Origin: a virus
Virus record (IMG/VR): IMGVR_UViG_3300034061_002899
Strand: one strand, 5' to 3'
Length of the DNA stretch: 64,000 nt
The notes under the pieces are model-generated. The model was not told the origin of the DNA, made no database searches, and was given only the letters and a program-made list of their open reading frames with translations. Position 1 is the stretch's first letter, and the number at the start of each line of letters is the position of its first letter. This document shows, in pieces, positions 19,669 through 55,500 of this stretch. The translations under genes were made by a program, and so were the position numbers.

Positions 19669-19678
19669 TTTATTTTAT

Positions 19679-19864: not shown

Positions 19865-19886
19865 TTGATTTCCTTTAAATTAAACT

Positions 19887-19963: not shown

Positions 19964-19990
19964 AATTATTTATAGCCCGATGTTATCGAA

Positions 19991-20626: not shown

Positions 20627-20635
20627 ATAATATAT

Positions 20636-21163
20636 TTATGTTAATAGAAACACTGGATCAATATCTGTAGCAACCGTCATACAGATTCTTGGAACTGTAT
20701 TCATATTTGTATGCACTCTATGTGGTTCTTGAACCCTAATTACTGTAGGTCTAATGATTTCAACCTCTGCTACCTTAGTAGGTATTGAATTATCTTTCAA
20801 TAAGTAATAAGGTATTCCATTCTGTTGAAAAAACATAGTATACTCACCACCTGAATAAAATTCAGTGCGTGAGCCTTCGCAATTCAAAATAGGAATATTG
20901 ATTCGACATTGTGATTTAAGATTACTCTTATAGTCAATATGAACTTTAGAATGTTCTTGTAGGAAGGTTACGTACAACGCAACTTTTTTTACCTTTAGAT
21001 TATAGTCTGCAAACGCAGACAATATTTCAGGACAATATTCAAGGTAGTCCTTATCTAGTAAGGAGAACCCTACTCTCACCGATGAATGATGTTCAAGAAA
21101 CTTTTTGGTCTTTTCTTGAATGACCTCAAAGTTTTGTATTTCAATCTGATTAAAATATTTCAT
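20636..21163 (-). CDS. Dioxygenase-like (cupin/2OG-Fe) protein
   Basis: HID, INIPI.NC, PH.V...R motifs. Confidence 0.6.
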   Translation of the reverse strand: MKYFNQIEIQNFEVIQEKTKKFLEHHSSVRVGFSLLDKDYLEYCPEILSAFADYNLKVKKVALYVTFLQEHSKVHIDYKSNLKSQCRINIPILNCEGSRTEFYSGGEYTMFFQQNGIPYYLLKDNSIPTKVAEVEIIRPTVIRVQEPHRVHTNMNTVPRICMTVATDIDPVFLLT

Positions 21164-21166
21164 ATT

Positions 21167-21241
21167 TGGATGCGGGTGACAGATTCGAACTGCCGATGCA
21201 CCTGGCTTATGAGACCGGTGTGGTGACCAACCCTACCCGCG
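21167..21241 (-). tRNA. tRNA-Met(CAT), initiator-like, atypical D-arm
   Basis: 5' CGCGGG with C1:A72 mismatch, CTCATAA loop, TTCGAAT, CCA; short D-arm. Confidence 0.75.
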
Positions 21242-21244
21242 TAA

Positions 21245-21313
21245 TTTATAAATGTATTTCTTTTTCACTTACAGAGCCAGTCTTATCAGCTGGGTATGAA
21301 ACACATTTATAAA
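21245..21313 (-). ncRNA. Long-stem hairpin element A
   Basis: 16-nt arms TTTATAAATGTGTTTC / GAAATACATTTATAAA (one G-U) just 5' of the tRNA. Confidence 0.55.
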
Positions 21314-21508
21314 GTGAGACTGCTACTACACCACATAGCCCAGTCTCTGAGTTGTTACACTGTCCACTTCTTCAATCTAGACGGTTAGAAGTCCGCCTTT
21401 GTGATTTTTCAAGTCGCTTTAAACAAGCCTTGCAGTAGATCCAATGCACTGTGCTATTAAGGTATTAGCAATTACCTAACTCTATTACGCTGAGTTAACG
21501 CGGGTTTA
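21314..21508 (-). ncRNA. Unassigned structured RNA, copy 1
   Basis: No ORF; several hairpins; shares UGGACAG.GUAAC..CUCA and GG/UAG internal-loop hairpin with 25861-26057. Confidence 0.55.
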
Positions 21509-21509
21509 T

Positions 21510-21585
21510 TGGTGGAGGATACCGGGATCGAACCGATGACCTACTGGTTGCAAACCAGTCGCTCTCCCAACTGAGCTAATCCCCC
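21510..21585 (-). tRNA. tRNA-Ala(TGC)
   Basis: Cloverleaf, TGC anticodon, G3-U70, CCA. Confidence 0.95.
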
Positions 21586-21972
21586 TCATCTCAGTAAGCC
21601 TCTACTTCCTCGTCCACTACCTTTATTCTTGGCAGCATATGATGCAGTTTGGCTATGACAGTTTGGACACAACAGCCTTACATTTTCAGGCATATTATTA
21701 CCAGCATTGCCATCTATATGATCTAACTGTAATGCTAACGGCACATTGTTATGTATTCCGTTATTACTACAACAAGCACATTTATATCCTGTTAGTTTTG
21801 TGATAATCTTATTCAGTGTCCGTCTATCTTTTACCTCACCTAAGTAAAATTTAGGCATAGTTAAATCTTTAAAAGTAAAATCAGCCTGACATTGATTGTC
21901 GCAAAACTTATTTTTATTATTACGCTTTACAGTGTTTTCTCTGTTACAGTGTAGGCAGTTAAATGTATTCAT
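21586..21972 (-). CDS. HNH endonuclease
   Basis: CxxC, LQLDHIDG...NN...N.RLLCPNCH. Confidence 0.9.
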   Translation of the reverse strand: MNTFNCLHCNRENTVKRNNKNKFCDNQCQADFTFKDLTMPKFYLGEVKDRRTLNKIITKLTGYKCACCSNNGIHNNVPLALQLDHIDGNAGNNMPENVRLLCPNCHSQTASYAAKNKGSGRGSRGLLR

Positions 21973-22051
21973 AGTATAATTCTTTGTAGTCCGTATACTA
22001 TTTATGCAAACGCTCTACATTTTGATATTTACCTACACCCCCAATATTCTT

Positions 22052-22128
22052 TGGTGCCCTAGGAGAGACTCGAACTCTCAGTTTACGGCTTCTAAGACCG
22101 CTGTGTCTACCAATTTCACCACCAGGGC
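22052..22128 (-). tRNA. tRNA-Leu(TAG), short variable arm
   Basis: Leu-type D-loop, CTTAGAA loop, CCA; no long variable arm. Confidence 0.85.
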
Positions 22129-22188
22129 ATTCATTTCAATACGTATTGTAACAGAGAACTATTTATCTGTCTACTGTTTTGGATAACT

Positions 22189-22262
22189 TGGAGCGGGGTA
22201 ACAGAATCGAACTGTCCGCATCAGATTGGAAATCTGAGGTATTACCACTATACGAACCCCGC
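22189..22262 (-). tRNA. tRNA-Gly(TCC)
   Basis: Cloverleaf, TCC anticodon, CCA. Confidence 0.95.
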
Positions 22263-23030
22263 TTATATATATTTTCTTTCACTTAACCAGGGCACAATAA
22301 CCTCATCAACAAATTCTTTATGCATCTCTGTTGTGGGGTGATGTGGACCTGTAAGAATATTCCATTCTTCAGGATTAGACTCTGCGTATTTTGAATTTTT
22401 TGATATCCAATTATACTGACTAGTTATAGGAAGATACTGCTCTGTATCAATTTGTTTATATAAGTAATCTATTTCAGGATGTGTTATATTTTCAGGCAGA
22501 ACAATATTATCGTCCATATAATTAGTAAAAAAATATTTAATATTTTTTGATTTTAGAAACCATTGTGTTTTCAATATATGCTCAATCGAATATATACTTG
22601 ATCCTATTTCATCATGGAACATTTTATAATATGTCATCGCTTCTTTATTATTTTCTGCCCAATTGGTATTAAGTATTACCCAATTTTTTGTACTATCTTT
22701 TACAAAACCAGTTGGATTTTCCATCCATCCATTATGTACTTTATCAGATACAAAATGTAATAAACCAGGTGATGTACATCTAAAGTCATGTCTATTAGAA
22801 CCACTCCACATAACACCTACTAGTATATCTTCTGGTTTATGTGTCTTTAGTGCTTCTAGTACACCATATATTATACTTCTACTTATAAGTCCGTTACCCT
22901 GACTACCCATTGCATAACTCTTATGATCATAGTCAGTTAATTCTTTAGATAAATGTATAGGCCACGCTTTATTTGCATAACTAATACATTCACTAAAACT
23001 ACAACCTGAGGTGATTAATAATTTTTTCAT
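22263..23030 (-). CDS. SGNH hydrolase-like protein
   Basis: GCSFS, GN..I, MWSG..R, HP...H motifs. Confidence 0.65.
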   Translation of the reverse strand: MKKLLITSGCSFSECISYANKAWPIHLSKELTDYDHKSYAMGSQGNGLISRSIIYGVLEALKTHKPEDILVGVMWSGSNRHDFRCTSPGLLHFVSDKVHNGWMENPTGFVKDSTKNWVILNTNWAENNKEAMTYYKMFHDEIGSSIYSIEHILKTQWFLKSKNIKYFFTNYMDDNIVLPENITHPEIDYLYKQIDTEQYLPITSQYNWISKNSKYAESNPEEWNILTGPHHPTTEMHKEFVDEVIVPWLSERKYI

Positions 23031-23040
23031 AAATATACTT

Positions 23041-23208
23041 ATGCACATTTACGATGCTATTACAAATTCCGGATTACACATCCATCTTTCAATGATGGAA
23101 GATGAATCCTTTTACATTATGGTACATGATCTTGTGAACTTCACTATGCAAATGAAGTTCTTTAGTAGCGTTGAGCCTGCTAGAGCATTTATTCAATCAC
23201 TAGAATAA
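23041..23208 (+). CDS. Small hypothetical protein
   Basis: ATG 23041 just after TAAATA; 55 aa. Confidence 0.5.
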   Translation: MHIYDAITNSGLHIHLSMMEDESFYIMVHDLVNFTMQMKFFSSVEPARAFIQSLE

Positions 23209-23210
23209 TT

Positions 23211-23284
23211 TGGCATCCCCCCAAGGATTCGAACCTTGACTAACGGTTTTGGAGACCGGTATGCTGCCATTACATTAGGGAGAT
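23211..23284 (-). tRNA. tRNA-Trp(CCA)
   Basis: Cloverleaf, CTCCAAA loop, G73 CCA. Confidence 0.9.
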
Positions 23285-23815
23285 ATTTAATTCTTTTAAT
23301 TTGTCTAAGTAATGTGATTGACCTTTACTGACCATTGAACGCCAGTCATTTAGTGAATCATCATTGGCTCCGTCACTAACAAACTTGTAACATAGAAACT
23401 CTACTTTATGTTTCCTGCATACTTTCGCAATAGCGTATGCTTCCATATCTACTACATCAGCAGGAATTAATAAGTTACTATCTGTGACAAAGTTATCACC
23501 TGTACTACAAGTTAATCCATCACCATTATCAATGATGATAGTATCTTCAAATGGTGTTTGACCTGGTAGACTACCTAACTCACAGCACATCATATCACGT
23601 TGAATAAACTTTGACACTTGATGGAATCCTGACTTAACAGTAACTCCACCTGCTGTACCAAAGTTGATAACACGATCAGGGTTGTACTTGGCAATCAACT
23701 CAGCCGCAGTCATTGCGGCATTTACTTTTCCTACACCTGTGTAAAATACTTTCATACTGAAAGCCATGTCAGGTGCTTCTTCTTTCAATGCAATTAATAT
23801 TAAATCTTTTTTCAT
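23270..23815 (-). CDS. mtnN: 5'-methylthioadenosine/S-adenosylhomocysteine nucleosidase-like protein
   Basis: GVGKVNAA, INFGTAG, TGD.F, DMEAYAIA, SD.A motifs. Confidence 0.8.
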   Translation of the reverse strand: MKKDLILIALKEEAPDMAFSMKVFYTGVGKVNAAMTAAELIAKYNPDRVINFGTAGGVTVKSGFHQVSKFIQRDMMCCELGSLPGQTPFEDTIIIDNGDGLTCSTGDNFVTDSNLLIPADVVDMEAYAIAKVCRKHKVEFLCYKFVSDGANDDSLNDWRSMVSKGQSHYLDKLKELNISLM

Positions 23816-23824
23816 AAATTCTCT

Positions 23825-23916
23825 TGGTGGAAACGGTGAGATTCGAACTCACGGGACGCATTAACATCCGACAGTTTTCAAGACTGTTGCAATAAACCGG
23901 GCTCTGCCACGCTTCC
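23825..23916 (-). tRNA. tRNA-Ser(TGA)
   Basis: Long variable arm, CTTGAAA loop, CCA. Confidence 0.95.
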
Positions 23917-24104
23917 TATTTTATTAGTATATCTACGTTTTGACCTTTAGCGGCAGGTTCTATTTTTCCTGTATTGTCGTAAAGGTATTGTATGACTTCT
24001 AAAACTGTTTTATTTGTCTTAGGATCTACTAGAGTACGATACTCGGTGTTGCGATATTGGTTATAAACCATATCCCAACTGTTTGTTATACTTTGTACTA
24101 TCAT
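23916..24104 (-). CDS. Hypothetical protein
   Basis: 62 aa, TAAATA just upstream. Confidence 0.55.
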   Translation of the reverse strand: MIVQSITNSWDMVYNQYRNTEYRTLVDPKTNKTVLEVIQYLYDNTGKIEPAAKGQNVDILIK

Positions 24105-24118
24105 ATAGTATTTATTAT

Positions 24119-24211
24119 ACCATATAGAAACACACTTTTAAACCTTTCTTCAGCGTTTAGTCGCTATCTCCCTTACTAATCGGGCGTAGGGTAAATGTGT
24201 TTTTATATGGT
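24119..24211 (-). ncRNA. Long-stem hairpin element B
   Basis: ACCATATAAAAACACA / TGTGTTTCTATATGGT arms enclosing two small hairpins; begins at the tRNA-Lys ACCA. Confidence 0.55.
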
Positions 24212-24281
24212 AGGAGTGTTCGGGAACGATCCGAATTTTACCGGTTAAAAGCCGGTTACTTCACCTTAAAGTTTCACTCCC
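24208..24281 (-). tRNA. tRNA-Lys(TTT), atypical T-loop
   Basis: CTTTTAA loop, acceptor stem and CCA intact; T-loop ATCGTTC instead of TTCGAAT. Confidence 0.75.
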
Positions 24282-24341
24282 ATAAGTCGTAATGATTGAT
24301 TTTACGTGCCAATCATAGACCTACGGAAGTCTATGATGACA

Positions 24342-24362
24342 CTATCGCTTACTGCGTTTCAT
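24342..24362 (-). other. Minigene MKRSKR with strong SD, followed by a hairpin
   Basis: AAAGGAAACGAC-ATG AAA CGC AGT AAG CGA TAG, then TCATAGAC/GTCTATGA hairpin. Confidence 0.45.
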
Positions 24363-24385
24363 GTCGTTTCCTTTGTTAAAAAATT

Positions 24386-24461
24386 TGGAGTGGGTGACAG
24401 GGGTCGAACCTGCATGTCACGGATTTGCAATCCGCTACCTAACCATTCAGTACACACCCAC
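24386..24461 (-). tRNA. tRNA-Cys(GCA)
   Basis: TTGCAAA loop, U73, CCA. Confidence 0.92.
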
Positions 24462-24470
24462 ATATTGCTC

Positions 24471-24666
24471 TGGCATCCCCCGGCGGTAATTATAGAGTAT
24501 CAAGACATGACGCTATCATACCCATCACACACTCCTTCCACCCGCTTCCCGAAACAGGGACCGTTCTCGCATTGCCAGCGGCCTTTGGGTTTAAAGACTA
24601 CCACCCGTAGCTGTCACGCTACTTCTCATCCTGTGGGTCACAGTATCCGGAGACACCCGGAACGTT
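24471..24666 (-). ncRNA. Unassigned GC-rich structured RNA
   Basis: GC-rich island with several hairpins; 3' end GGGGGATGCCA is identical to the tRNA-Trp 3' end. Confidence 0.5.
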
Positions 24667-24682
24667 CTTTTATAAATACAGT

Positions 24683-24865
24683 ATGGATATCCAAGACTGC
24701 ATTGATATAGTTGAAAAGTTGTTGCGTCAAAACAACCGTAATTATAAGGATAGCCACGAACAATTATTATATGAACGAGGTTACCTTACTGGTATGCTTG
24801 CTCGGATGATGATTGAAAATCCTATGTTTCGCAATGAAATCATAGACCGAGCAAAAAAGAAATGA
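24683..24865 (+). CDS. Hypothetical protein
   Basis: TATAAATA just upstream; helical 60-aa ORF. Confidence 0.6.
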   Translation: MDIQDCIDIVEKLLRQNNRNYKDSHEQLLYERGYLTGMLARMMIENPMFRNEIIDRAKKK

Positions 24866-24866
24866 T

Positions 24867-24954
24867 TGGTGGAGAGTGTGGGATTCGAACCCACGCACCC
24901 ATTGCTGGATGACAGATTAGCAATCTGTTGGTTTAACCACTCACCCAACTCTCC
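24867..24954 (-). tRNA. tRNA-Ser(GCT)
   Basis: Long variable arm, GCT anticodon, CCA. Confidence 0.95.
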
Positions 24955-24960
24955 TATACA

Positions 24961-25037
24961 TGGTGCCTCCGACAGGACTCGAACCTGTAACCAATGGATT
25001 ATGAGTCCACTGCTCTAACCAATTGAGCTACCGAGGC
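24961..25037 (-). tRNA. tRNA-CAT (Met or Ile2)
   Basis: Cloverleaf, CTCATAA loop, CCA; Met versus lysidine-Ile cannot be decided by eye. Confidence 0.9.
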
Positions 25038-25044
25038 GCTATTT

Positions 25045-25449
25045 TTAATTATTTCTTAAAACTTGTTCTCGCCTTTCTTTGACGATTTCATTTCTTTTAC
25101 TAACATCTTTTATTTTTTGTATATCCAAACAATCTCTAATACAATCGTCAGGTAATGCCATATTTTTTCTAACAAGTTTAGCAACTTCTAATTCATTTGG
25201 TAATAACCCGCGAAGGCCGTTAAAGGGTCTTTTCCACATTCCGTTATCTACTGCATGACAGGTTATACATGTATGATCGGGCATTGAAGGTCGCATGTCT
25301 CTAGCTAAATGATTACCTGTTAACTTAGAGCATACATAGTTATCTGTTACTGTGGGGTATTCTATACCACAACTATTAGTTGAGATTGGTTTTAATGTTG
25401 AACACCCGGTAAGTAAAAGAAACATTAATACTAAGCCTATTTTTTTCAT
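25045..25449 (-). CDS. Lipoprotein with CxxCH (putative c-type heme) motif
   Basis: Lipobox LTGC; CITCH. Confidence 0.6.
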   Translation of the reverse strand: MKKIGLVLMFLLLTGCSTLKPISTNSCGIEYPTVTDNYVCSKLTGNHLARDMRPSMPDHTCITCHAVDNGMWKRPFNGLRGLLPNELEVAKLVRKNMALPDDCIRDCLDIQKIKDVSKRNEIVKERREQVLRNN

Positions 25450-25485
25450 GTATCACCCTTTATATGGACAGAGAACTTAAAAATT

Positions 25486-25571
25486 TGGTGCGACTGGCCG
25501 GAATCGAACCGGCACGCTGTTACGGCGAGAGATTTTAAGTCTCTTGTGTCTACCTATTTCACCACAGTCGC
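25486..25571 (-). tRNA. tRNA-Leu(TAA)
   Basis: Long variable arm, TAA anticodon, CCA. Confidence 0.95.
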
Positions 25572-25619
25572 AAATCTTGTTATCATTATATATCATACAA
25601 TGATTGTAGTCAAATATTA

Positions 25620-25696
25620 TGGCGCACCGTAGGGGACTCGAACCCCTGGCCTCATGCGTGACAGGCATGCGATCTAACCAACTGATCTAACGGTGC
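25620..25696 (-). tRNA. tRNA-Asp(GTC)
   Basis: Cloverleaf, GTC anticodon, G73 CCA. Confidence 0.95.
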
Positions 25697-25768
25697 AAAA
25701 TCTGTGATAGTTTCTATACAACCCATTGAAACTAACAAACATTGAGTATATTGCTACACTATTTGTCT

Positions 25769-25852
25769 TGGTGGAGACGGTTGGAGTTGAACCAACAGTG
25801 CCGAAGCGGAAGATTTACAGTCTCCTGGGGTTACCAATTTTCCTACATCTCC
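25769..25852 (-). tRNA. tRNA-Tyr(GTA)
   Basis: GTA anticodon, variable arm, CCA. Confidence 0.93.
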
Positions 25853-25860
25853 AAAATTAG

Positions 25861-26057
25861 TATAAGCTACTTGTTTCCACACAAGCCCTTAATTGAGCGG
25901 TTACTCTGTCCATCTCATTTATTCAAAGTCTGTGTGCAGTGAGAATCTGCCTATCAGAGCCTGCGAGGGTATTTTTAATCCTCACGCTAACGGTTTTCTG
26001 CCACCGGATCTCTATCATTAATCAAACGCTATTTTAACGAAAATAGTAACGGGATAC
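25861..26057 (-). ncRNA. Unassigned structured RNA, copy 2
   Basis: No ORF; multiple hairpins; paralogous 3' core with 21314-21508. Confidence 0.55.
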
Positions 26058-26133
26058 TGGAGCTCGGTACGGGATTCGAACCCGTGTGAATGCCGTGAAA
26101 GGGCACTATCCTAGGCCACTAGATGAACCGAGC
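26058..26133 (-). tRNA. tRNA-Glu(TTC)
   Basis: Cloverleaf, TTC anticodon, CCA. Confidence 0.93.
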
Positions 26134-26137
26134 ATTA

Positions 26138-26265
26138 TGTTATTAGTTTTGCTGACGCACTATTTGCTATGTCTCAACGGAATTGGTGGCCACACTACCG
26201 TTTATCGTCATAGTTACGTAGGGTTGACGTTTACCCAAGGGCTTACATCAGCAAAACTAATAACA
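26138..26265 (-). ncRNA. Long-stem structured element C
   Basis: Perfect 18-bp arms TGTTATTAGTTTTGCTGA / TCAGCAAAACTAATAACA around a ~90-nt structured core. Confidence 0.6.
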
Positions 26266-26267
26266 CA

Positions 26268-26480
26268 CTATATGAAAACACACTATGGGAACTACTAAAC
26301 AAATAGTCAGTACCGTCTACTGATTCAATGTCATTCGTCATTACTGCCTAACTGCCCGTCACGTTCGTAACTTTCGTTATCATACGCTTCTTGTACTCTA
26401 TGCGAAGCCAGTCCGTCAACTGGTTATGCTTCCATAGAGTACCTAACGGATCAGGTAACCCTTAATATGTTTACATATAG
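26268..26480 (-). ncRNA. Long-stem multibranch element D
   Basis: CTATATGTAAACAT / GTGTTTTCATATAG closing stem; internal GTACTCTATG/CATAGAGTAC, GAAA tetraloop and TCAGTA/TACTGA stems. Confidence 0.6.
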
Positions 26481-26514
26481 AGCCCTGAACTTAACAGGGA
26501 TATATGAATTCTAA

Positions 26515-26526
26515 ATTTTAAAGAAC
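26515..26526 (-). promoter_or_regulatory. boxA-like antitermination site
   Basis: GTTCTTTAAAAT about 35 nt downstream of a promoter, resembling rrn boxA (TGCTCTTTAACA). Confidence 0.5.
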
Positions 26527-26566
26527 TTTGTTGAAATGTCTGATGACTTTCTCAACTCATGCTATG

Positions 26567-26595
26567 ATTGTATCATAACTTCCATTTGTTGTCAA
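26567..26595 (-). promoter_or_regulatory. Sigma70 promoter inside the tRNA array
   Basis: TTGACA-17 bp-TACAAT. Confidence 0.7.
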
Positions 26596-26648
26596 ATTCT
26601 TTTTTGTGTCTCTGTTTCCAAGAACTTGTTCAATCAATCTATAACTAG

Positions 26649-26677
26649 AGTATAGCACTAAACTGATTTATTGTCAA
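26649..26677 (-). promoter_or_regulatory. Sigma70 promoter inside the tRNA array
   Basis: TTGACA-ataaatcagtttagtgc-TATACT. Confidence 0.75.
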
Positions 26678-26681
26678 ATTT

Positions 26682-26756
26682 TGGTCCGGGGTACAGGAAT
26701 CGAACCTGTATTGACTGCTTAGAAGGCAGCTGTATTATCCATTATACTAACCCCAG
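26682..26756 (-). tRNA. tRNA-Arg(TCT)
   Basis: Cloverleaf, TCT anticodon, CCA. Confidence 0.93.
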
Positions 26757-26777
26757 ATAAATGTCTAACTTGCCTCT

Positions 26778-26806
26778 ATTATAGCAGAGAATTGATTTAT
26801 TGTCAA
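26778..26806 (-). promoter_or_regulatory. Sigma70 promoter for tRNA-Arg(TCT)
   Basis: TTGACA-ataaatcaattctctgc-TATAAT. Confidence 0.8.
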
Positions 26807-26827
26807 GTGTGACAATAACTATTTGAT

Positions 26828-26903
26828 TGGCTCCCCGACCTGGGCTCGAACCAGGGACCTACGGATTAACAGTCCGGTGCTCTACCAACTGAGCTATCGA
26901 GGA
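26828..26903 (-). tRNA. tRNA-Asn(GTT)
   Basis: Cloverleaf, GTT anticodon, CCA. Confidence 0.95.
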
Positions 26904-26908
26904 ATATT

Positions 26909-26983
26909 TGGTGCCCCAGGTTAGAATCGAACTAACTACCTACCGCTTACAAGGCGGGTGCTCTACCAGTGAGCTACAAGGGC
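26909..26983 (-). tRNA. tRNA-Thr(TGT)
   Basis: Cloverleaf, TGT anticodon, CCA. Confidence 0.95.
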
Positions 26984-27013
26984 TTTTGTCTTACGACTTG
27001 TTTATTTAACAGT

Positions 27014-27042
27014 ATTGTATCATAGGAAAACTTTTTTGTCAA
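27014..27042 (-). promoter_or_regulatory. Sigma70 promoter
   Basis: TTGACA-17 bp-TACAAT. Confidence 0.65.
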
Positions 27043-27043
27043 C

Positions 27044-27604
27044 CTATGATAATAATATTCTACTGTGTTTGGGAACACCGGCAAGCAAGTATTCCATTTG
27101 GTCTGCAAGAATAGTTCTATGTTGTAATATCATATTCTCGTAATGATTAGGTACGTAAGGTGCATAAATTAATTCCATACGTGCTTCTTTCAATGTCTTG
27201 TGACCTTTCTTGCTGTTACAATCTTTACAAGCTGTAACAACGTTCATCCAGGTGTTCTCACCACCTTTACTCTTTGGATGAATATGATCTCTACTTAGTA
27301 AGTGAAAGTTAGGAAAGTGTTCACCGCAGTAAGCGCATACATGTCTATCACGACCAAATAATGTTTTGTTAGTTAGTGCTACACAAGAATGTTTGTATGG
27401 GTTGAATCCGTGTCCTTTGATAGCAATAATACTAGTAGCTTCCAAGTAACTTAATGTACCGTCTTTTTGTATGCCACCACGATATTTAGCCACAATTTCC
27501 CCCATTGACCATGCTATGGCATCTTTTGCTTTATAGGTAATTGCGTCATCATTTGAGATCCACTGCCGGGGAACTCCTGAGATATCTAGTGCTAGAACAG
27601 CCAT
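27044..27604 (-). CDS. HNH endonuclease
   Basis: RD...CAYCG...DHIHPKSKGG...W.NVVTAC..CN..K; AAGGAG SD before ATG 27604. Confidence 0.9.
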   Translation of the reverse strand: MAVLALDISGVPRQWISNDDAITYKAKDAIAWSMGEIVAKYRGGIQKDGTLSYLEATSIIAIKGHGFNPYKHSCVALTNKTLFGRDRHVCAYCGEHFPNFHLLSRDHIHPKSKGGENTWMNVVTACKDCNSKKGHKTLKEARMELIYAPYVPNHYENMILQHRTILADQMEYLLAGVPKHSRILLS

Positions 27605-27652
27605 GTAAAACTCCTTTTCTGCTATTGTCACTAATTGTATTTAATGCCGTAT

Positions 27653-27727
27653 TGGCGGGTCCTGCAGGAATCGAACCCACATCCCGAAGTTCGAAGCATC
27701 GTATTCTATCCATTGAACTAAGGACCC
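27653..27727 (-). tRNA. tRNA-Arg(TCG)
   Basis: CTTCGAA loop, cloverleaf with one anticodon-stem mismatch, CCA. Confidence 0.88.
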
Positions 27728-27729
27728 AT

Positions 27730-27805
27730 TGGTACCAAGAGTTGGACTCGAACCAACCACACCTAGTGCTTCAAACTAGTGCTCTACCTGATGAGCTATC
27801 TTGGC
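27730..27805 (-). tRNA. tRNA-Phe(GAA)
   Basis: TTGAAGC loop, cloverleaf, CCA. Confidence 0.9.
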
Positions 27806-27812
27806 TTATAAA

Positions 27813-27961
27813 GGTGGGAGCCTAACTATCTTATTGTTAGTAAGCCTCGCTAGATTGTCTCGTATAGGCAAGTTTATACACCCATCAATCATACTATAGT
27901 GTCATCACAGTTAACCCCACGGTGACTAGATTGGCAGGGACTCGAACCTATCGTCTATCCC
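27813..27961 (-). ncRNA. tRNA-like structured RNA candidate
   Basis: 5' GGGA can pair with 3' TCCC-ACC; contains T-loop-like GGTTCGAGTCC near the 5' end; no ORF. Confidence 0.4.
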
Positions 27962-27978
27962 ATAAACTTTGAAAATTA

Positions 27979-28647
27979 TTATTTACTTTTATAAGGCAAC
28001 GTACACCACATGATTACAGCAGTTTTCGATTCTATGCCATTTTTAAGATAGTTATCGCTACAGTGCCATTTATATCGGCTGGCTGCCAACAATGAACCGG
28101 TCTTCCATGGGAAAACGGTTTCAATTGATAAGTATCTCATTTTTTCTCTCAACTCATATGAAAGGTATTTTTCATATGTTTCGTCATCTATAGAATCAAT
28201 GGGGTCTGCTTTTTGAATGTATTCGTCAATATTTTTACTAGTGGTATACCATTCATTAAAAATGACAGTATTAGAATCTACTGTTTCTAATGGAATAACA
28301 ACTGTATATGCACCATAGTGGTCATCATCTATTCCATATTCCCCATATATACCATCTATATGTGTTCGGTATGGAGTATATGATTCTAATATATGCATCC
28401 CACCTATAACTAAATCAGCTCCAAATTCTTTATGCATTTTTTCTCTTAATAACAAATCAGAATTTTTCATCGACGGATTATCTAATATTGACGTAATTTT
28501 ACATTCTAATTCATTTTCGGAATATGTTTCAGATATAGCGTTTGGATCTACGGTAATAGCTTCAAGTAAAATAGATTCAACCTCTGTATTAGATAAAAAA
28601 TTATCTATAACTCTAGTATCAACAATGGGTGGGTTAAGATTAATCAT
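27979..28647 (-). CDS. Dioxygenase-like (2OG-Fe/cupin) protein
   Basis: HID, VIPL, WH.S..K motifs; TATAAATA upstream. Confidence 0.6.
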   Translation of the reverse strand: MINLNPPIVDTRVIDNFLSNTEVESILLEAITVDPNAISETYSENELECKITSILDNPSMKNSDLLLREKMHKEFGADLVIGGMHILESYTPYRTHIDGIYGEYGIDDDHYGAYTVVIPLETVDSNTVIFNEWYTTSKNIDEYIQKADPIDSIDDETYEKYLSYELREKMRYLSIETVFPWKTGSLLAASRYKWHCSDNYLKNGIESKTAVIMWCTLPYKSK

Positions 28648-28670
28648 AATATAACTATTTATATAATGTT

Positions 28671-28748
28671 TGGCACCCCCTCAAGGATTCGAACCTCGGT
28701 GTGTCGGAATCAAAATCCGATGCCTTAGACCAACTTGGCGAAGGGGGT
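28671..28748 (-). tRNA. tRNA-Gln(TTG)
   Basis: Cloverleaf, TTG anticodon, G73 CCA. Confidence 0.92.
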
Positions 28749-28865
28749 ATTTTATCTTTAATAAAGAGACTCCTTGTACACATTACATAAATGTGTCCAT
28801 GCTTCAATTTCTTGTTTATGCTTTTCTACTGATTGATTCCAACTCATTTGAGTCTCCTTAAAATT

Positions 28866-28940
28866 TGGTACCGCCACCTGGACTTGAACCAGGGACCTAC
28901 GCCTTATCAAGGCGGTGCTCTACCACTGAGCTATAGCGGT
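28866..28940 (-). tRNA. tRNA-Ile(GAT)
   Basis: Cloverleaf, GAT anticodon, CCA. Confidence 0.95.
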
Positions 28941-28944
28941 GAAT

Positions 28945-29019
28945 TGGTGGATGTAAGTAGATTTGAACTACTGACCTGCTCCGTATGAAGGAGATGCACT
29001 ACCGCTGTGCTATACATCC
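28945..29019 (-). tRNA. tRNA-CAT (Met elongator or Ile2)
   Basis: TTCATAC loop, cloverleaf, CCA. Confidence 0.9.
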
Positions 29020-29020
29020 A

Positions 29021-29097
29021 TGGGGTGCTTGATGGGATTCGAACCCACGTATATCGGAATCACAATCCGAGGTCTTAACCGCTTGACGACAAGCACC
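29021..29097 (-). tRNA. tRNA-His(GTG)
   Basis: G-1:C73 pair, GTG anticodon, CCA. Confidence 0.95.
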
Positions 29098-29104
29098 ATA
29101 CTAT

Positions 29105-29181
29105 TGGTACGACCTAAGAGAGTTGAACTCCTGACCCCCAAGTTCGTAGCCTGGTGCTCTATCCATCTGAGCTAAGGTCGC
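29105..29181 (-). tRNA. tRNA-Arg(ACG)
   Basis: Cloverleaf, ACG anticodon, CCA; first tRNA of the array. Confidence 0.95.
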
Positions 29182-37476: not shown

Positions 37477-38138
37477 GAAGGGTCCATAAAAGTGTCTATG
37501 CAATATTGAGTTTTAGTTCTCCAATGAATTACTGATTCAACGGAAAAGTTAACATAATTAATGCTAGTAAATGTACTTAGTTTTGCAATTAGATCATCAA
37601 TATTTTCTTTAAACAATTCTTTCCAAGACACAAACAATACATTTGGCATATTTTCAATTTTTTTAAATTTTTCGTTAAACGTATATCTCGGTAATATAGC
37701 CGCTACGTTTACCGAATGATTTATATTTAATTTTGTTTTTCTCGCATCAACTCTATTTTTTCCATAAAACGCGGCAGATATCTCCGGTATATCATCAAGA
37801 TCATATGTAATTCTTATTGATTTTTTAAAAGCAGAATTAATTAAAGCAATGTCAACCAGATGTACGGGTGTATAGTATGGTTTTTCTAAGTATGGTTTTT
37901 CTACTTTAGCTAAGTTTGCCTTATTAAGTATATAATCAATTTTTAGATGGTCAGGCACTACTACACCATACGGCGATCCACCAATATCTTTTAAAGAATG
38001 GACATGAGCGTTTCCATATTTAGAAAGTTCAATAATATCTTGTATGTTTCTCTTAGCACTAATTATTAAATGGCATAAAAAATTTCCGCCAGTTCCCCCC
38101 ATAAAAGTTACAGGGATAATGTCCTCAGTAGGCATCAT
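37473..38138 (-). CDS. P-loop/sulfotransferase-like protein
   Basis: FMGGTGGNFL; similar to 30759-31766. Confidence 0.45.
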   Translation of the reverse strand: MMPTEDIIPVTFMGGTGGNFLCHLIISAKRNIQDIIELSKYGNAHVHSLKDIGGSPYGVVVPDHLKIDYILNKANLAKVEKPYLEKPYYTPVHLVDIALINSAFKKSIRITYDLDDIPEISAAFYGKNRVDARKTKLNINHSVNVAAILPRYTFNEKFKKIENMPNVLFVSWKELFKENIDDLIAKLSTFTSINYVNFSVESVIHWRTKTQYCIDTFMDPS

Positions 38139-38523
38139 GTCTCTTTTTGTAATCTTCTACTGCGGCTTTGATGGCGTCTTCGGCGAGGATGCTACAGTGG
38201 ATTTTGACTGGGGGTAATGCTAGTTCTTCGGCAATTTGGGAGTTTTTGAGTTGTGCGGCTTCATCAAGGGTTTTTCCTTTGACCCATTCTGTAACGAGGC
38301 TCGAACTCGCAATAGCCGATCCGCAGCCATACGTTTTAAATTTTGCATCTGTAATAATACCTGTATCATTGTCAACCTTTATTTGTAGTTTCATTACATC
38401 ACCTAACTAACCACACGCCGGGGCTCCTACCATACCAGTCCCAACGTGCGTGTCCTCCTTATCAAAGGTTCCCGCATTGCGGGGGTTATTATAGTGATCC
38501 AACACTTTATCTGAATATGCCAT
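38125..38523 (-). CDS. iscU: Fe-S cluster scaffold IscU, interrupted by an in-frame TAG in a 9-nt insertion (recoded gene or pseudogene)
   Basis: MAYSDKVLDHYNNPRNAG...GMVGAPACG*LGDVMKLQIKV...GCGSAIASSS...LPPVKIHCSILAEDA; TAG at 38407-38409. Confidence 0.85.
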
Positions 38524-39112
38524 TATAGTTCTCCAATATATTATTAACTATTTCCTCAGATTGAAATGTATCCCATTTCTTTCTGTTTTCCTCACCTGTT
38601 ATAAATCTTAAATTACATAGATGCCCTATAATCATAGGATCAATTTTAAGTTCATATCCTTGTTTAAAGGGTATTATATGATCTACTTGAATATCTGTTT
38701 TCTTTTTTCCAGTCACTGGCATTAAATTTTGTTTTATAAGTCTATATAGAGTACGACGGGTTGCTTTCCTGCATTCTCTCTTGTATTTAACAAATTCATC
38801 ATTTATTTGATTTTTCGGTCGTATATTGTTTAATTTGCCTTCCCAATTTGGATTTGAAAGACCGGTCCATTTTTCTTTTTGTACTTGATTTGGCACACCC
38901 TTATTCCATCCATGTCCTTTTTTAAGACCTTCTGTATTTAATTTAGACTTTTGGTCAGGTGTCATTTGTATACCTTTATTCCAAGGTATATTACCTTTAC
39001 GATTTATGGGATTCTTACAGGGAGTTGAACAGTACTCTAAAAATCTAGGTTTTGTCACAAACTCAGAGCTACAATGTATACACTGTATTAATAAGCCATA
39101 TTTCGTTTTCAT
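38507..39112 (-). CDS. Free-standing HNH homing endonuclease-like protein
   Basis: Zn-finger, PWNKG/GWNKG NUMOD-like repeats, DHIIP...NL.FI...EN..K; overlaps the iscU start. Confidence 0.8.
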   Translation of the reverse strand: MKTKYGLLIQCIHCSSEFVTKPRFLEYCSTPCKNPINRKGNIPWNKGIQMTPDQKSKLNTEGLKKGHGWNKGVPNQVQKEKWTGLSNPNWEGKLNNIRPKNQINDEFVKYKRECRKATRRTLYRLIKQNLMPVTGKKKTDIQVDHIIPFKQGYELKIDPMIIGHLCNLRFITGEENRKKWDTFQSEEIVNNILENYNGIFR

Positions 39113-49501: not shown

Positions 49502-52500
49502 TTAGAATCGTCCTACAGCTACTTCAACTATGCCAGAAGCACCAGTGAAGTTTTCTAGTGACTTACCAATAATAGTACCTGCACGTGCTATGTTATTAGC
49601 GGTAGCATATCCATTACCTGTTGATACTAATAGATCACCTTTAAAGATTGGGCCAATTACTTTAGCTGGCACACGACCTTGTAGAGCAATAGTAGCAACG
49701 TGTTCACCTTCACAACCATTATTCATAGTATATGCTGGGTTAGTTGTTACAACACCAGCTACTCTGAATGAATCTGTTTCTGTTGATAATGTAACTTCAT
49801 GTTCGCCACCAAATACTAAAACTGTTCCTGGCTCATAATCAGCATCAGCAGTATATTTTTCTGCCAAGTCAGCGTATGTTGCATTCAATCTAGAACCTGC
49901 ACTCAATGTCCAGTTACCAGTAACCGTACCTGCTGTAGTATTTGCACCAGTTGTTAGAGTCGTACCAAAGTGAGTTGCTGTACCTGTACCAATTTGAACT
50001 GCGCCGGTCAGTGTACCAGATAATGTTAAGCCAGTCAATGTACCAACTGATGTGATATTTGGCTGTGCCGCTGTTGTTACAGTACCTGCTGTAGTTGCAC
50101 TTGCTACTGTTCCAGTTACGCTAACTGTGACTCCTCCGGTTGCGCCACTGACTGCAATGTTAGTACCTGCTACAATACTGGTTACGCCTGTATTAGTAAT
50201 AGTTACAGCAGAACTGCCGTTATAACTTGTGCCACCAAGACCTGTACCGATTGTAAGTGCATTAGTTGCTGTTGCAGTAATAGTACCAGATCCACCAAGT
50301 GAAATTGCCGTACCGTTAACAGTTAATGAACTATTAGCAAGTCTTGCTTGTGCTAATGTACCAGAACTGATATTACTTGCGTTCAATGCAGTTAAAGAAG
50401 AACCGTTACCAGTGAACACACCTGTATTTGCAGTAAATGCTGAGGCTGTTACAGTGCCGTTAACACCCAAACCAGTTAGTGTACCAACACTTGTAATGTT
50501 AGGTTGAGCCGCTGTAGTAACAGTACCTGCTGTAGTTGCACTAGTAGCCGCACCTGATAGAGCACCAGTAAATGTTGTAGCAGATACGTTACCTGCGCTG
50601 ATGTTTCCAGTTACTGCTAAACTTGTTAGTGTACCTACTGAAGTAATATTAGGTTGTGCCGCAGTAGTTACGGTGCCCGCTGTAGTTGCACTAGTAGCCG
50701 CACCACTTAGTGCGCCTGTAAACGTAGTTGCACTTACATTACCAGCAGATATATTACCTGTAACAGCAAGTGATGTTAATGTACCTACTGATGTAATATT
50801 AGGTTGTGCCGCTGTAGTAACAGTACCAGCAGTAGTTGCCGCACCACTCAATGCACCAGTAAATGTTGTTGCACTTACATTACCTGCACTAATATTGCCT
50901 GTTACTGCCAGTGATCCTAGTGTACCAACGCTTGTCAAACTAGAAGTAACAACTGTTGATTTTAATGTTGTGCCTGACAAGTTTGCGGCATTTGCAGTGA
51001 TTGCAACGTTAGCGGCAGCAGTTAGTTGGCCTTGACCGTTAACAGTAAATGATGCTACTGCATCTCCGTTACCATAACTACCTGCTGACACAGCAGTATT
51101 AGTAATACTAAACGCACCACCTGTTAATGTTAATCCTGTACCAGCAGTGTATTCGCCGGCGCCGCTGAACTGTACCCATTCAATTGGATCTGTACCGATT
51201 GTAGTGACCTCGTCAGTTTGAACCCAACCAGTTGAGTTGTATAATGTGCCGGCAGTAACGAAAGTGAAGTCACCGCCTTGAATCTCAGCACCGGTATCAA
51301 AGTCAGTAGCACGGGTTAATACTGTTGAACTTGTGCGAACATATATACCATTATTTGCGGCAGTCGCTTCATTCTTAACAAGAATACGCATACCATTTGT
51401 TAATGTTACACCGTCAATAGTTGTATATGAACCTGTTGTTGTCAATGTTGCGCCTACACCTGCTGTACCATTATTATATGTAACAGTACCACCTGAGATA
51501 CTTGCTAATGTGGTTTGAGTGGCTGCGTTACAACTTGCATGTACGTGTAGACCTTGTGCAATATCATCAACATATTGTTTTGTTGCGGCATCAGTTGATG
51601 CAATTGGAGTACCAACATTAGAAATAATAAAGTTACCAACATTAACTTTACCAGTTCCTGTAGGAGTTAAATTGATGTTTTGATTTGTACCAGTTGCAGT
51701 AATTGATACACCTGTTGTTCTGCCAACAATCAAATCAGTTACTAAGTTAGCATTAGTTACAATATTACCGGTTGCACTTACTAAACCACCGGTAGTCAAG
51801 TTACCGCCAGTGATATTACCTGTAGCAGTAATCAATCCACCTGTACCCAAATTACCTACGTTAGCATTACCTGAAACACTAACACTTGTTAGTGTACCAA
51901 CTGAAGTAATGTTAGGTTGTGCGGCTGTTGTTAAACTACCTGCAACTGTTGTAAATATACCTGCGGCTGCTCCGATGTTTCCTACGTTAGCATTACCTGA
52001 AACACTAACACTTGTTAGTGTACCAACTGATGTAATATTTGGCTGAGCCGCAGTAGTAACAGTACCTGCTGTAGTTGCCGCACCACTCAATGCACCAGTA
52101 AATGTTGTAGCAGATACGTTACCAAATGTACCATTACCTGTAGCACTTACAATACCTGCTGTAATGACATTACCGGCATTCAAATTACCGGTAGCAGTAA
52201 TTAAACCAGCTGTGCCTAAATTACCTACATTAGCATTACCACTAGAACTTAGTGTAGTTGCAAATACTCCAGTTGCACCAATGTTACCTACATTAGCATT
52301 ACCTGTAGCAGATATAACACCACCGGTTATTAAATTACCACCAGTGATATTACCTGTAGCGGCAATCAATCCACCTGTACCAATATTGCCGATGTTTGCA
52401 TTACCTGACACTGATACACTAGTTAAAGTTCCAACCGATGTAATATTAGGTTGTGCGTTGGTTGTCAATGTACCTGTTAATAATGTCCCAATTACATTAC

Positions 52501-55500
52501 CACCGGTAATGTTACCTGTAGCAGTGATTAAACCAGATGTGCCTAAGTTACCAACATTAGCATTGCCACCTACTGATAAACTTCCGGTTGTTATTAAATT
52601 AGCACCAGCTACATTACCTGACATGCTAATAGCACTACCATTAGAAGTCATTCTGGCATTGCCTAAATAGATTGTGCTATTAGATAAGTATATGTCTTTC
52701 CAGCGTTGTGTATTAGAACCTAAATCGTATGTAACATCTACATTAGGTAACAAAGCACTGGTTACATTGCCTGATACATTTAAGTTAACTACATTAGCAG
52801 TACCAGTACTTATGTTGCCAAATGTGCCATTACCAGTAGCACTTACAATGCCACCTGTTACTAAATTACCAGCAGTAACATTACCAGTAGCAGTTACTAA
52901 ACCACCTGTAGTTAAGTTACCACCAGTTACATTACCTGTAGCAGTTACTAAACCGCCGGTTACTAAGTTACCACCACCAATATTACCTGTAGCAGTTATT
53001 AAACCACCTGTACCAATGTTACCAATGTTAGCATTACCAACAACGCTTAATGCATTACCAATTTGTACTACATTAGAAGTTTTATTAAATGTGAAGGCTG
53101 CACTACCACCAAAGGCGTCAGCATCATTAAATTGAATTTGTGCGTTTGAACCACCTGCTTGTTGGAAGTCAACTGGGCTACCATTAGCATAATAATAATT
53201 ATTTGTTTTAATACCACCAACTGCGGCATTACCGGTTACGTTTAAGTAACCCTGTGTATATATACCTTCTGCGCCATCTGTAGTTTCAATACCAAAGATG
53301 TTTGCTTTGCCAGTTGAATTAAATGTTAGTGCCGCATTTGAGTTATCTACTAAATCCCAAATTGTTGCAGTTTCAATAGAACCAATGTTACCTGCTTGCA
53401 CATAGAAAGCATAGCTACCTATACCAGAACCAGATGCGTTACCTAAAACACCAATGTTGTAACCACCTGAGTGTGTTTGAGTAGAGTAACCACGTACACC
53501 AACTGCGGCGCCGGTATCGGCTGAGTTTGTTACATAACCGCCACCTTGAACACCAGTTGCTTTAGTAGCACCATTTGCACGTGCTTCACCCAATACACCA
53601 ATACCCCATGTGTTTGCATTACCAGAATCTGCAACAGCTTCACCAACAACACCAATATTTTCTGAGTGTGTTTGACCACTATTATCTTGTGATATGATTG
53701 CTTTAGCATTTGGGAAATCAACTTGTGCCGCGGTTGCACCAACTAACAAACCAGTCAATGTACCAACACTTGTAATATTAGATTGAGCCGCAGTTGTAAC
53801 CGTACCTGCTGTTGTTGCGCTAGTTGCGGCGCCGCTTAGTGCACCAACAAATGTAGTCGCTGTAATAGAGTTATTTGATAGGTTAGCAACTAAACCAGTA
53901 CTTGTTAGTTCTGATACATTACCTGTTGCCGCATTTGCAAAAATAAGGAAGTTATTTCCTGTACCGGCTGCCACACTAATAAAGTCTGCCACGTTAGCAT
54001 AATCAACGTTTAAGTTTGCGACACGTGTAGTAGAAGTTACAGTCAATGGTGCTGTACCTGTTGCAATATTTGATATAAAACGAGTTGCTGTTTCTGTTCC
54101 AGATGTGTTGATATTACCAAATGTACCGTTACCAGTTACTGCTAAAGAACTTAATGTACCAACACTAGTGATGTTTGGTTGTGCCGCAGTTGTTACTGTA
54201 CCCGCTGTCGTAGCACTAGTTGCCGCCCCGGTTAATGCACCGACAAACGTAGTAGATGTAACACTAGATAAGCCCGCCACAGTAGTAGTTGTACCACCCA
54301 ATGTTAAAGTAGTGTTACCTAATGTTAACGTACTGTTTGCAAGTCTTGCTTGTGCTAGTGTACCACTTGCAATACTAGATGCGTTTATTCCAGTTATTGA
54401 TGACCCGTTACCTGAGAAAGAGTTAGCACTTACTAAGTTAACTCCAGAAATCTGTGATCCAGCGCCTGACATTGTAATTTGTGCATTTGCTACAAAAGTC
54501 AATCCACTAAATGAAGTACTTACTGAAGTGATATTAGGCTGAGCCGCAGTTGTTACAGTACCCGCTGTAGTTGCACTACTTACTGTACCAGTTACGTTAG
54601 CACCTGCAATAGCACTCAATCCACTACCATTACCCGTAAACACACCTGTATTAGCAGTGAATGCGGGGGCGGTTATAGTACCACTTGAGTTTAAACCAGT
54701 TAGCGTACCGACAGCGGTAACCTGTGTCTGACTTGCATTTACACTGAAAGTAGAACCAGTTAATGTTAAACCAGTGCCTGCTTGATAGGTTCCTGCACCT
54801 GAGAACTGCTCCCAAACTATTGGATCTGTGCCAACTGTAGTAACATCGTCAATTTGTACCCAACCAGTTGAATTATATAGAGTACCAGCCGTGACAAAAG
54901 TGAAGTCACCGCCTGCAATTTCGGCAGCAGTATCAAAGTCAGTAGCACGAGTCAACACAGTTGAGCTTGTTCTTACATAGATACCGTTATTTGCTTGAGT
55001 TGCTTCGTTCTTAACAAGAATACGCATTCCGTTTGATAGTGTGACACCATCAATAGTGGTATATGAACCAGTAGTTGTTAGTGTTGCACCTACACCAGCT
55101 GTACCATTGTTATAGGTAACTGTACCGCCTGAGATAGTTGCTAATGTAGTTTGAGTGGCTGCGTTACAAGAAGCGTGAATATGCAATCCCTGTGCAACAT
55201 CGTCAACATATTGTTTTGTTGCGGCATCAGATGAGTTAGTTGGAGTAGCAAGATTGATAATGGTATTGCTAGTCATATCCAAATTGCCAGCAATACTGCT
55301 TACACCAGTACCAGTAACACTTAGTACACCAGTTGTTGTCAAGTTGCCGGCTGCAACGTTACCAGTAACAGTAGCACTTGTTAGTGTTCCTACTGAAGTT
55401 ATGTTTGGTTGCGCGGCTGTTGTTACTGTGCCGGCTGTAGTTGCACTTGATACTGTGCCGGTAACATTAGCACCTGCAATCGCACTTAATCCACTACCAT

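Follow-up and report, generated by a model that had tools for sequence, protein, structure and literature searches.

The subject of this report is an interrupted iscU gene in a 64,000-nucleotide (nt) stretch of phage DNA, the IMG/VR virus record IMGVR_UViG_3300034061_002899 (called the window below). The gene carries 9 extra bases, including a TAG stop codon, within its conserved GAPACGDVM motif and is directly preceded by an open reading frame (ORF) for an HNH-like protein. Comparison with related phage sequences makes it quite likely that the insert is crossed by a programmed stop-hop from one glycine codon to another, and that it shields the allele from its own homing nuclease. It is also, on balance, probable that the window samples a natural and widespread family of 6-10-nt stop-hops, which would be driven by refolding of an upstream hairpin, be independent of T4 gene 60 and act as the immunity half of a homing cassette; this would be a second bypass system in phages and the first case of the short hop in natural use. 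The features concerned are the following.

38523..38125, minus strand: iscU, from the ORF list and its translation, with the stop codon TGA at 38127-38125
39112..38507, minus strand: HNH-like ORF of 201 amino acids (aa), directly 5' of iscU and overlapping its start by 17 nt
38410..38523, minus strand: iscU codons 1-38 (MAYSD...GAPACG) in the upstream frame, the last being the take-off Gly codon; Pfam NifU_N, E 3.8e-11
38412..38450, minus strand: conserved RNA hairpin of 16 base pairs (bp) within the iscU coding sequence, from folding and covariation
38410..38412, minus strand: proposed take-off codon GGT (Gly38), which is GGN with an adjacent stop in relatives
38401..38409, minus strand: the 9 extra bases, i.e. 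TAG (38409-38407), the spacer TTA (38406-38404) and the proposed landing codon GGT (38403-38401)
38125..38400, minus strand: iscU from Asp39 (GAT) to the TGA stop, with Cys63, His105 and Cys106 of the cluster site; Pfam NifU_N, E 1.7e-36
38386..38401, minus strand: recombination-breakpoint interval, the 3' edge of the mobile cassette, from alignment with relatives

The original prediction, made from the window alone, had placed the iscU start at 38523 and had read the junction as GAPAC-GGT-TAG-TTA-GGT-GAT-GTA-ATG. This reading was confirmed on the minus strand, where the bases are GGA GCC CCG GCG TGT GGT TAG TTA GGT GAT GTA ATG (ATG at 38394-38392) and the translation is MAYSDKVLDHYNNPRNAGTFDKEDTHVGTGMVGAPACG*LGDVMKLQ... 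(...GMVGAPACG*LGDVMKLQ..., with the asterisk for the stop). Since 79 IMG/VR iscU loci without the HNH-like ORF read GAPACGDVM and have no insert, exactly 9 nt are extra in the window, as had been proposed, and the insert is in frame. Otherwise the gene is intact: the frame stays open up to the TGA, and NifU_N is matched by both halves, i.e. by the 38 codons before the stop and by the part after it. It is the one copy of iscU within the window. The 5' part of the gene had been described as unusually GC-rich. Its GC content (0.51) is indeed above that of the whole window (0.37), but the C-terminal part (0.43) is richer as well, so the enrichment is one of the whole gene.

Junctions and selection in related phages

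Relatives were collected from IMG/VR in three scans, with the C-terminal part of IscU (80 loci), the upstream HNH-like ORF (74 loci) and the pattern GAPACG followed by a stop (115 further iscU loci) as queries. Because the third scan presupposes a stop, the frequency of stops was taken from the sample selected by the HNH-like ORF only. The pooled insert set consists of 164 loci, with 86 unique alleles (sequence contexts) and 29 types of junction.

In the scan with the C-terminal part of IscU, 78 of the 80 loci read GAPACGDVM without an insert; the other two (L077 and L080, in our numbering of loci) carry a different insert at the same site, and both have a homologue of the upstream ORF. All 74 loci of the second scan have this homologue directly 5' of iscU. 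Within the samples selected by IscU and by the HNH-like ORF, the insert was found in 49 of the 66 loci that have the ORF, whole or as a remnant, and in none of the 79 loci without, which bears out the predicted co-occurrence of inserts between Cys-Gly and Asp with the HNH-like gene. An assembly error is an unlikely source of the insert, because at least 7 separate IMG/VR contigs, which belong to 7 metagenome datasets, share the exact window junction (GGT-TAG-TTA-GGT). A pattern scan of cellular genome contigs gave at least 120 chance matches in GC-rich bacteria, with no iscU among the matches listed.

All 86 alleles share one form of junction: GGN, a stop, 0-4 nt, and then GGN GAY GTN. The stop is TGA in 42, TAG in 29 and TAA in 15 alleles, and the lengths of the insert are distributed as follows.

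Insert of 6 nt: 3 unique alleles
Insert of 7 nt: 41 unique alleles
Insert of 8 nt: 20 unique alleles
Insert of 9 nt: 18 unique alleles
Insert of 10 nt: 4 unique alleles

The insert is thus out of frame in 65/86 alleles, with all three reading frames represented, so that read-through cannot be the general rescue. The spacer is unconstrained (e.g. C, A, G, CA, CT, CC, TTA, ATA, CTG and ATTT), while the landing GGN and the following GAY and GTN vary at their third positions only; from this third-position variation beside a free spacer we conclude that the downstream frame is the one in which Asp39 and Val40 are read. Cassettes that differ at no more than 5 of 90 upstream nt carry inserts of unlike length and frame, for instance L158 (TAG CTG GGC) and L161 (TGA C GGC), a pair that is 3-5 of 90 upstream nt apart. 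The base that follows the stop is C in 50 of the 86 alleles, and C as the fourth base is a weak termination context in E. coli.

Among the loci sampled via the HNH-like ORF alone, the stop lies directly 3' to the take-off codon in 47 of 49. The exceptions are L093 and L094 (both at 3186-3216), in which a 7-nt insert reads GGT TGTT GGA, the Cys codon UGU occupies the A site and the rest of the gene is intact. This allele is close to the cassette of the window (88% identity of the upstream ORF) and could be a decaying allele or an instance of a hop without a stop.

Selection was analysed by pairwise comparison of the 34 unique full-length insert alleles. The ratio of non-synonymous to synonymous substitution rates (dN/dS) was 0.12 for codons 1-38 and 0.08 for the remainder, with dS above 1. 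Both frames are open in all 34 alleles, and the predicted product of the hop has Cys37, Asp39, Cys63, His105 and Cys106 in every one of them. The two halves of iscU are under purifying selection, and ratios of about 0.1 on both sides at such values of dS exclude a recent pseudogene or a neutral scar. The relatives show no decay towards a dN/dS near 1, the outcome that the original prediction had set against its own proposal, and the fresh pseudogene that it had listed as an alternative can be dropped.

An upstream hairpin and a mobile cassette

The 48 nt that end in the take-off codon of the window fold into a 16-bp stem-loop (-21.7 kcal/mol, z -2.3), with CGCACGUUGGG-A-CU.. as the 5' arm and ..AG-C-CCCGGCGUGUG as the 3' arm, the last pair taking the first G of the take-off codon. 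The fold is more stable in insert alleles (-26.4 ± 2.8 kcal/mol) than in insert-free alleles without the HNH-like ORF (-16.2 ± 4.2 kcal/mol) or with it (-14.1 kcal/mol). Between 14 and 16 of the 16 pairs are kept in 86/86 unique insert alleles, against means of 10.0 pairs in 68 insert-free alleles without the ORF and 9.3 in 9 insert-free alleles with it. In an alignment of 16 distinct sequences, 95.3% of the cells are paired, compared to 28-42% in slid controls, and four pairs have changes on both sides. Over all 86 alleles, pair 12-42 is AU in 49, CG in 31, UA in 5 and GC in 1, and pair 15-39 is UA in 59, CG in 12, UG in 8, GC in 6 and GU in 1, in both cases with zero mismatches. On one side the covarying changes exchange one synonymous Ala or Pro codon for another, and the matching changes on the opposite side fall in the variable region of the peptide. 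The hairpin is retained in 17 insert alleles without the upstream ORF and in 9 with only a remnant and is missing from alleles without an insert, which ties it to the insert and not to expression of that ORF.

This hairpin differs in position from the one that had been pointed out in the window before (CCCGCAATGCGGG, at 38484..38472). The latter did not hold up as a conserved element: it is weakly enriched in insert alleles (mean -4.0 versus -2.8 kcal/mol), about half of which fold there at all. Downstream of the landing codon there is no sign of additional structure, as the 63 nt there fold with -8.1 kcal/mol as compared to -7.8 kcal/mol in insert-free alleles.

The upstream ORF overlaps the iscU start, as had been noted from the window, and its assignment as an HNH nuclease is probable, not secure. 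The motifs of the protein are CxxC...CxxxC (N-terminal), WNKG (two repeats) and D-H...N...N (C-terminal); the last of these, D144-H145...N167...N176, is invariant in an alignment of 13 homologues. Its Pfam HNH match is below the cut-off (E 0.023; 15.3 bits versus a cut-off of 21.4), and in PHROG it matches phrog_5104 (function unknown, E 1.5e-13) and phrog_1271 ('HNH endonuclease', E 0.0087). A profile search of the PDB with the nuclease alignment yielded no credible match. The AlphaFold model has a predicted local distance difference test score of 73.5 overall and above 80 in the C-terminal domain; the top Foldseek matches are the HNH domains of Cas9 and colicins, though weak (E>0.2), and the best VIA-align match is the Gme HNH nicking endonuclease, which is sub-threshold (Z 4.9, root-mean-square deviation 4.9, 68 aligned residues). 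The best matches of the protein in cultured phages are unannotated ORFs with 27-59% identity over partial lengths. Its nearest relatives in cultured phages, with 31-43% identity to part of the protein, are unannotated ORFs of T4-like Acinetobacter phages (e.g. NC_049445.1 110657-111019), and most lie beside or overlap the tail-tube gene. These ORFs probably encode members of the same family of free-standing homing nucleases, directed at another target. The upstream ORF behaves like a homing endonuclease gene: it is free-standing, is present or absent at one site, decays to remnants and has mosaic flanks.

Several observations indicate that the HNH-like ORF and iscU codons 1-38, with hairpin and insert, move together as a unit into different iscU backgrounds. 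Homologues of a 174-aa and a 187-aa ORF upstream and of a 109-aa ORF downstream served as synteny markers for relatives with and without the ORF-plus-insert combination, and the syntenic relatives L006, L026, L028, L029 and L047 proved to be empty sites, with neither ORF nor insert. The window itself is mosaic. Its codons 1-38 are 97-99% identical at the nt level to those of the ORF-containing loci L083, L084, L087 and L089 and 66-73% identical to ORF-less alleles of the same phage lineage, while its downstream part is about 80% identical to the former four. The first 129 nt after the insert, on the other hand, are 99% identical to the ORF-less L007, as compared to 73% for codons 1-38. The window follows L083 and L089 up to 38401 and L007 from 38386, the 14 nt in between being uninformative. 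This recombination edge just 3' of the insert is where a homing nuclease would be expected to cut. Trees of 150 alleles are discordant as well: the insert changes state 3 times on the tree of the N-terminal part (9 times when the hairpin columns are removed, leaving 69 nt) and 19 times on that of the C-terminal part, where a single insert clade is rejected (log-likelihood difference 649, approximately unbiased test p 2e-95).

In some relatives iscU contains, at Cys63, an intein of about 345 residues (FKTYG/CLTSN...VGSHN/CGSAIASS), namely at L112:3090-4496 (also in L113-L116), L130:3197-4498 and L133, and probably in L226, L238 and L258. Intein and stop insert at times occur in the same gene, as in L130 (GGA TGA CT GGA). 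The presence of both kinds of element makes iscU of these phages a hotspot for selfish elements. One locus, L002 (CAKLQF020000009.1 34460-42743), filed under 'Acinetobacter phage MD-2021a', contains a complete bacterial iscRSUA-hscBA-fdx operon and looks like bacterial DNA binned as phage.

The window derives from a large uncultivated phage that has ribonucleotide reductase genes, tail-fibre genes and an ORF of 3714 aa (49502-60646, minus strand), which adjoins the tail-fibre-like genes. A megablast of 20 kb of the window gave no match among cultured phages, and the iscU matches in cultured phages are distant ones only.

How the insert may be crossed

On the basis of these alleles, a Gly-to-Gly hop alone would account for all 29 junction types, as it restores one and the same protein irrespective of frame. 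A hop is favoured because it is frame-independent, uses both GG doublets, is helped by a slow A-site codon and yields GAPACGDVM. The sequences show the anatomy of the junction with its conservation and independence of frame, selection on the two halves, covariation of the hairpin and a mobile cassette; the hop and its efficiency, a part for the hairpin in it, and cleavage by and immunity to the nuclease are what we infer from them. According to this explanation, a mobile cassette (the HNH-like gene, the recoded and hairpin-forming codons 1-38 and the stop insert) would have invaded phage iscU genes, with the insert most likely making the occupied allele immune to the nuclease of the cassette, which would otherwise cleave there. 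With peptidyl-tRNA-Gly on GGU and a slowly decoded stop (UAG in the window) in the A site, the tRNA would unpair. The mRNA would then move by 9 nt (6-10 nt in relatives), the tRNA would re-pair on the second GGN, and decoding would restart at GAU (Asp39) to give the canonical GAPACGDVM. Re-zipping of the hairpin may supply the pull: at take-off, when the take-off codon occupies the P site, the 3' arm of the 11-bp outer stem would be inside the ribosome and the inner 5-bp stem at the mRNA exit, so that a forward slide of 6-10 nt would let about as many GC-rich pairs form. The minimal stop-hop linked to an HNH gene, as put forward in the original prediction, is supported by the grammar of the 86 alleles, by selection, by co-occurrence and by the breakpoint.

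Several points weigh against this explanation. The stop-hops obtained in E. coli in the laboratory have a low efficiency (Weiss et al. 1987, cited by bioRxiv 10.1101/2022.08.31.505936), and the assignment of the nuclease fold is weak. Only 30 of the 86 alleles have the same codon at take-off and landing (the window, with GGT...GGT, is one of them), the others sharing the first two bases; 36/86 (e.g. GGU to GGA) have no common standard isoacceptor for the two codons, so that re-pairing would depend on the first two bases only. The L093/L094 allele has no stop after its take-off codon. In 17 loci with the HNH-like ORF neither insert nor hairpin is found, and the insert is therefore not obligatory for carriage of the nuclease gene. 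The in-frame insert of the window formally also permits read-through of TAG, with an IscU that is 3 residues longer. Finally, 16 of the 20 alleles of the 8-nt class form an ATGA stop/start overlap in frame with the C-terminal part, and in most of the 7-nt class an in-frame GTG is present 21 nt upstream, inside the hairpin arm.

Two of these groups deserve a description of their own. The 17 insert-free loci with the ORF include L097, L110, L122 and L134-L146; in several of them the site is altered by substitutions (GDLM, GDVLQLS, PSCGDVLKL), in others it is canonical, which points to immunity by other routes, or to variants of the nuclease that have different targets. In the alleles of the form GGA-TGA-Cx-GGN (L099, L123, L130-L133, L153-L157 and other 8-nt alleles) the stop overlaps an in-frame ATG (GG-ATG-A), a coupling motif that could offer this subset a second route to the C-terminal part.

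Such coupling would lead to a split IscU, in which the 38-residue N-terminal peptide would be released, the C-terminal part would be started separately by coupling or re-initiation, and the two chains would associate. We regard this as unlikely. It too predicts purifying selection on both halves and would make use of the ATGA overlaps, and in 70/86 alleles an ATG (Met41) lies 9-12 nt past the insert, preceded by GGAGAT or GGTGAT, which resembles a Shine-Dalgarno sequence. However, codon 41 encodes Leu in 16/86 alleles, so a restart at this codon cannot be general, and no start codon precedes Asp39 in the C-part frame of the 21 alleles with 6- or 9-nt inserts. A start at Met41 would moreover drop Asp39, a conserved residue of the cluster site. 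The GGN-GAY-GTN ahead of Met41 varies synonymously only, while the spacer varies freely; the 29 junction types share no start or Shine-Dalgarno geometry, and the conserved hairpin is left without a role. Little probability is likewise given to a separate kind of recoding for each class of allele, i.e. read-through for 6 and 9 nt (including the window), +1 frameshifting for 7 and 10 nt and -1 or +2 frameshifting for 8 nt, with 2-3 extra residues between Gly38 and Asp39 as the result. The in-frame insert of the window agrees with it, as do A-site stops with a weak fourth base (TGAC, TAAC), a context that also stimulates +1 frameshifting in prfB. Against this, three mechanisms would be required for alleles that are a handful of bases apart, GGN-U offers no +1 re-pairing (GUU, GAU, GCU), variable extra residues would come to lie in the Cys37-Asp39 ligand loop of an otherwise tightly conserved protein, and the invariant second GGN stays unexplained. 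Read-through would also have to do without a suppressor tRNA: none with a CUA anticodon was found among the 26 tRNA genes of the window (clustered at 19359-29181 on the minus strand and covering most amino acids), and the genetic code is the standard one, because TAG terminates 6 of the 49 large ORFs. Reassignment of the stop codon was rejected on the same counts, together with the 65/86 alleles that are out of frame. There is no sign of a specialised hopping tRNA either, as both tRNA-Gly genes of the phage (GCC and UCC) have ordinary 7-nt anticodon loops.

Two further explanations do without recoding. The insert might be excised from the mRNA by cleavage and re-ligation beside the hairpin, followed by ordinary translation. 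The conserved hairpin does end exactly at the insert, and large phages often encode RNA ligases and repair enzymes, but we are not aware of any case in which 6-10 nt are excised from a phage mRNA, the adjacent stop and the conserved second GGN would play no role, and no intron-like or bulge-helix-bulge features were seen; we consider excision very improbable. A group I intron, as a self-splicing RNA of more than 200 nt, or an intein, as an in-frame protein-splicing domain, is ruled out by an insert of 6-10 nt. Least credible is a dead scar of nuclease cutting and sloppy repair in an iscU pseudogene, or an assembly error. Phage auxiliary genes are often dispensable, and the insert does lie at the expected cut position of a homing nuclease. 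This rival is nevertheless strongly disfavoured by the low dN/dS on both sides at saturated dS, the frames intact in 34/34 alleles, the covariation of the hairpin, the persistence of the insert in 17 alleles that have lost the HNH gene and the identical junction in at least 7 independent contigs.

Relation to known systems

The closest parallel to the proposed Gly-to-Gly hop is the T4 gene 60 bypass with its MobA HNH cassette (Huang et al. 1988; Bonocora et al. 2011; both as described in Manning & Atkins, bioRxiv 10.1101/2022.08.31.505936). As in iscU, both take-off and landing codon of gene 60 encode Gly, and a stop is situated directly 3' to the take-off codon. A 5' stem-loop of gene 60, comparable to the upstream hairpin of iscU, has been proposed to drive forward movement (bioRxiv 10.1101/2022.08.31.505936 and bioRxiv 10.1101/2024.12.09.627546). 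In both systems, furthermore, the insert is in a conserved phage gene that adjoins a gene for an HNH-family nuclease, the cassette is mobile and present or absent among relatives, the insert is proposed to be protective, and the nuclease gene is lost or decayed in some lineages. There are clear differences as well. The gap in iscU is 3-7 nt (a shift of 6-10 nt) as opposed to 50 nt in gene 60, and the third base is often not the same in take-off and landing codon, unlike in T4. The sole conserved structure lies upstream and has the take-off codon at its 3' base, and a gene-60-type take-off stem-loop (with the take-off codon in the 5' arm) was not found. The host gene is iscU, which is not split into two genes, whereas it is a topoisomerase subunit in T4, and the linked nuclease, of about 200 aa, is only weakly recognisable as HNH. 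We detected no sequence homology to the gene 60/MobA cassette, in line with the short gap, the different host gene and a nuclease that matches unannotated ORFs. A nascent-peptide signal contributes to bypassing of the gene 60 type; the N-terminal peptide of IscU is conserved in every IscU, and a specific signal of this kind does not stand out in its sequence.

The stop-hops and hopping tRNAs studied in E. coli in the laboratory (Weiss et al. 1987; O'Connor et al. 1989; via bioRxiv 10.1101/2022.08.31.505936) resemble the event proposed here in being short and frame-independent, with peptidyl-tRNA that passes a slow or stop codon and lands on a matching codon a few bases downstream. They are synthetic or accidental, have a low efficiency and lack a stimulatory structure, whereas the iscU inserts are natural, comprise 86 unique alleles and combine a covarying hairpin with a selected gene. 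The byps in mitochondria of Magnusiomyces capitatus are, like the iscU inserts, numerous, natural and mobile and are bypassed in translation; they are 27-55 nt long, involve an unassigned sense codon instead of a stop, have no link with a nuclease and occur in a eukaryotic organelle.

Free-standing homing endonucleases of phages (e.g. the T4 Mob and Seg proteins) are inserted between genes beside their target, their flanks are co-converted so that mosaic alleles arise, and they pass through a cycle of gain, decay and loss. The iscU cassette has the same intergenic position beside the target, the same mosaic flanks and the same cycle. Protection against a homing endonuclease usually consists of silent substitutions, an intron or an intein; in the iscU cassette it would apparently be a frame-breaking insert that is rescued by recoding.

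A literature search returned no paper that connects iscU with bypassing or homing endonucleases and no report of a natural, conserved short stop-hop. So far, programmed bypassing in bacteria and phages comes down to one system, T4 gene 60 and its homologues, and short stop-hops are known only as inefficient laboratory events. If the proposed hop is real, these phages would provide a natural and independent system that offers 29 junction variants along with a simple signal (a hairpin, a stop and a second Gly codon) and in which the minimal needs of peptidyl-tRNA take-off, sliding and landing would be directly testable. It would also be the second case of a selfish nuclease gene that travels with a recoding signal which repairs its own damage, and it would hold a warning for annotation, in that such iscU genes would be called pseudogenes or two ORFs.

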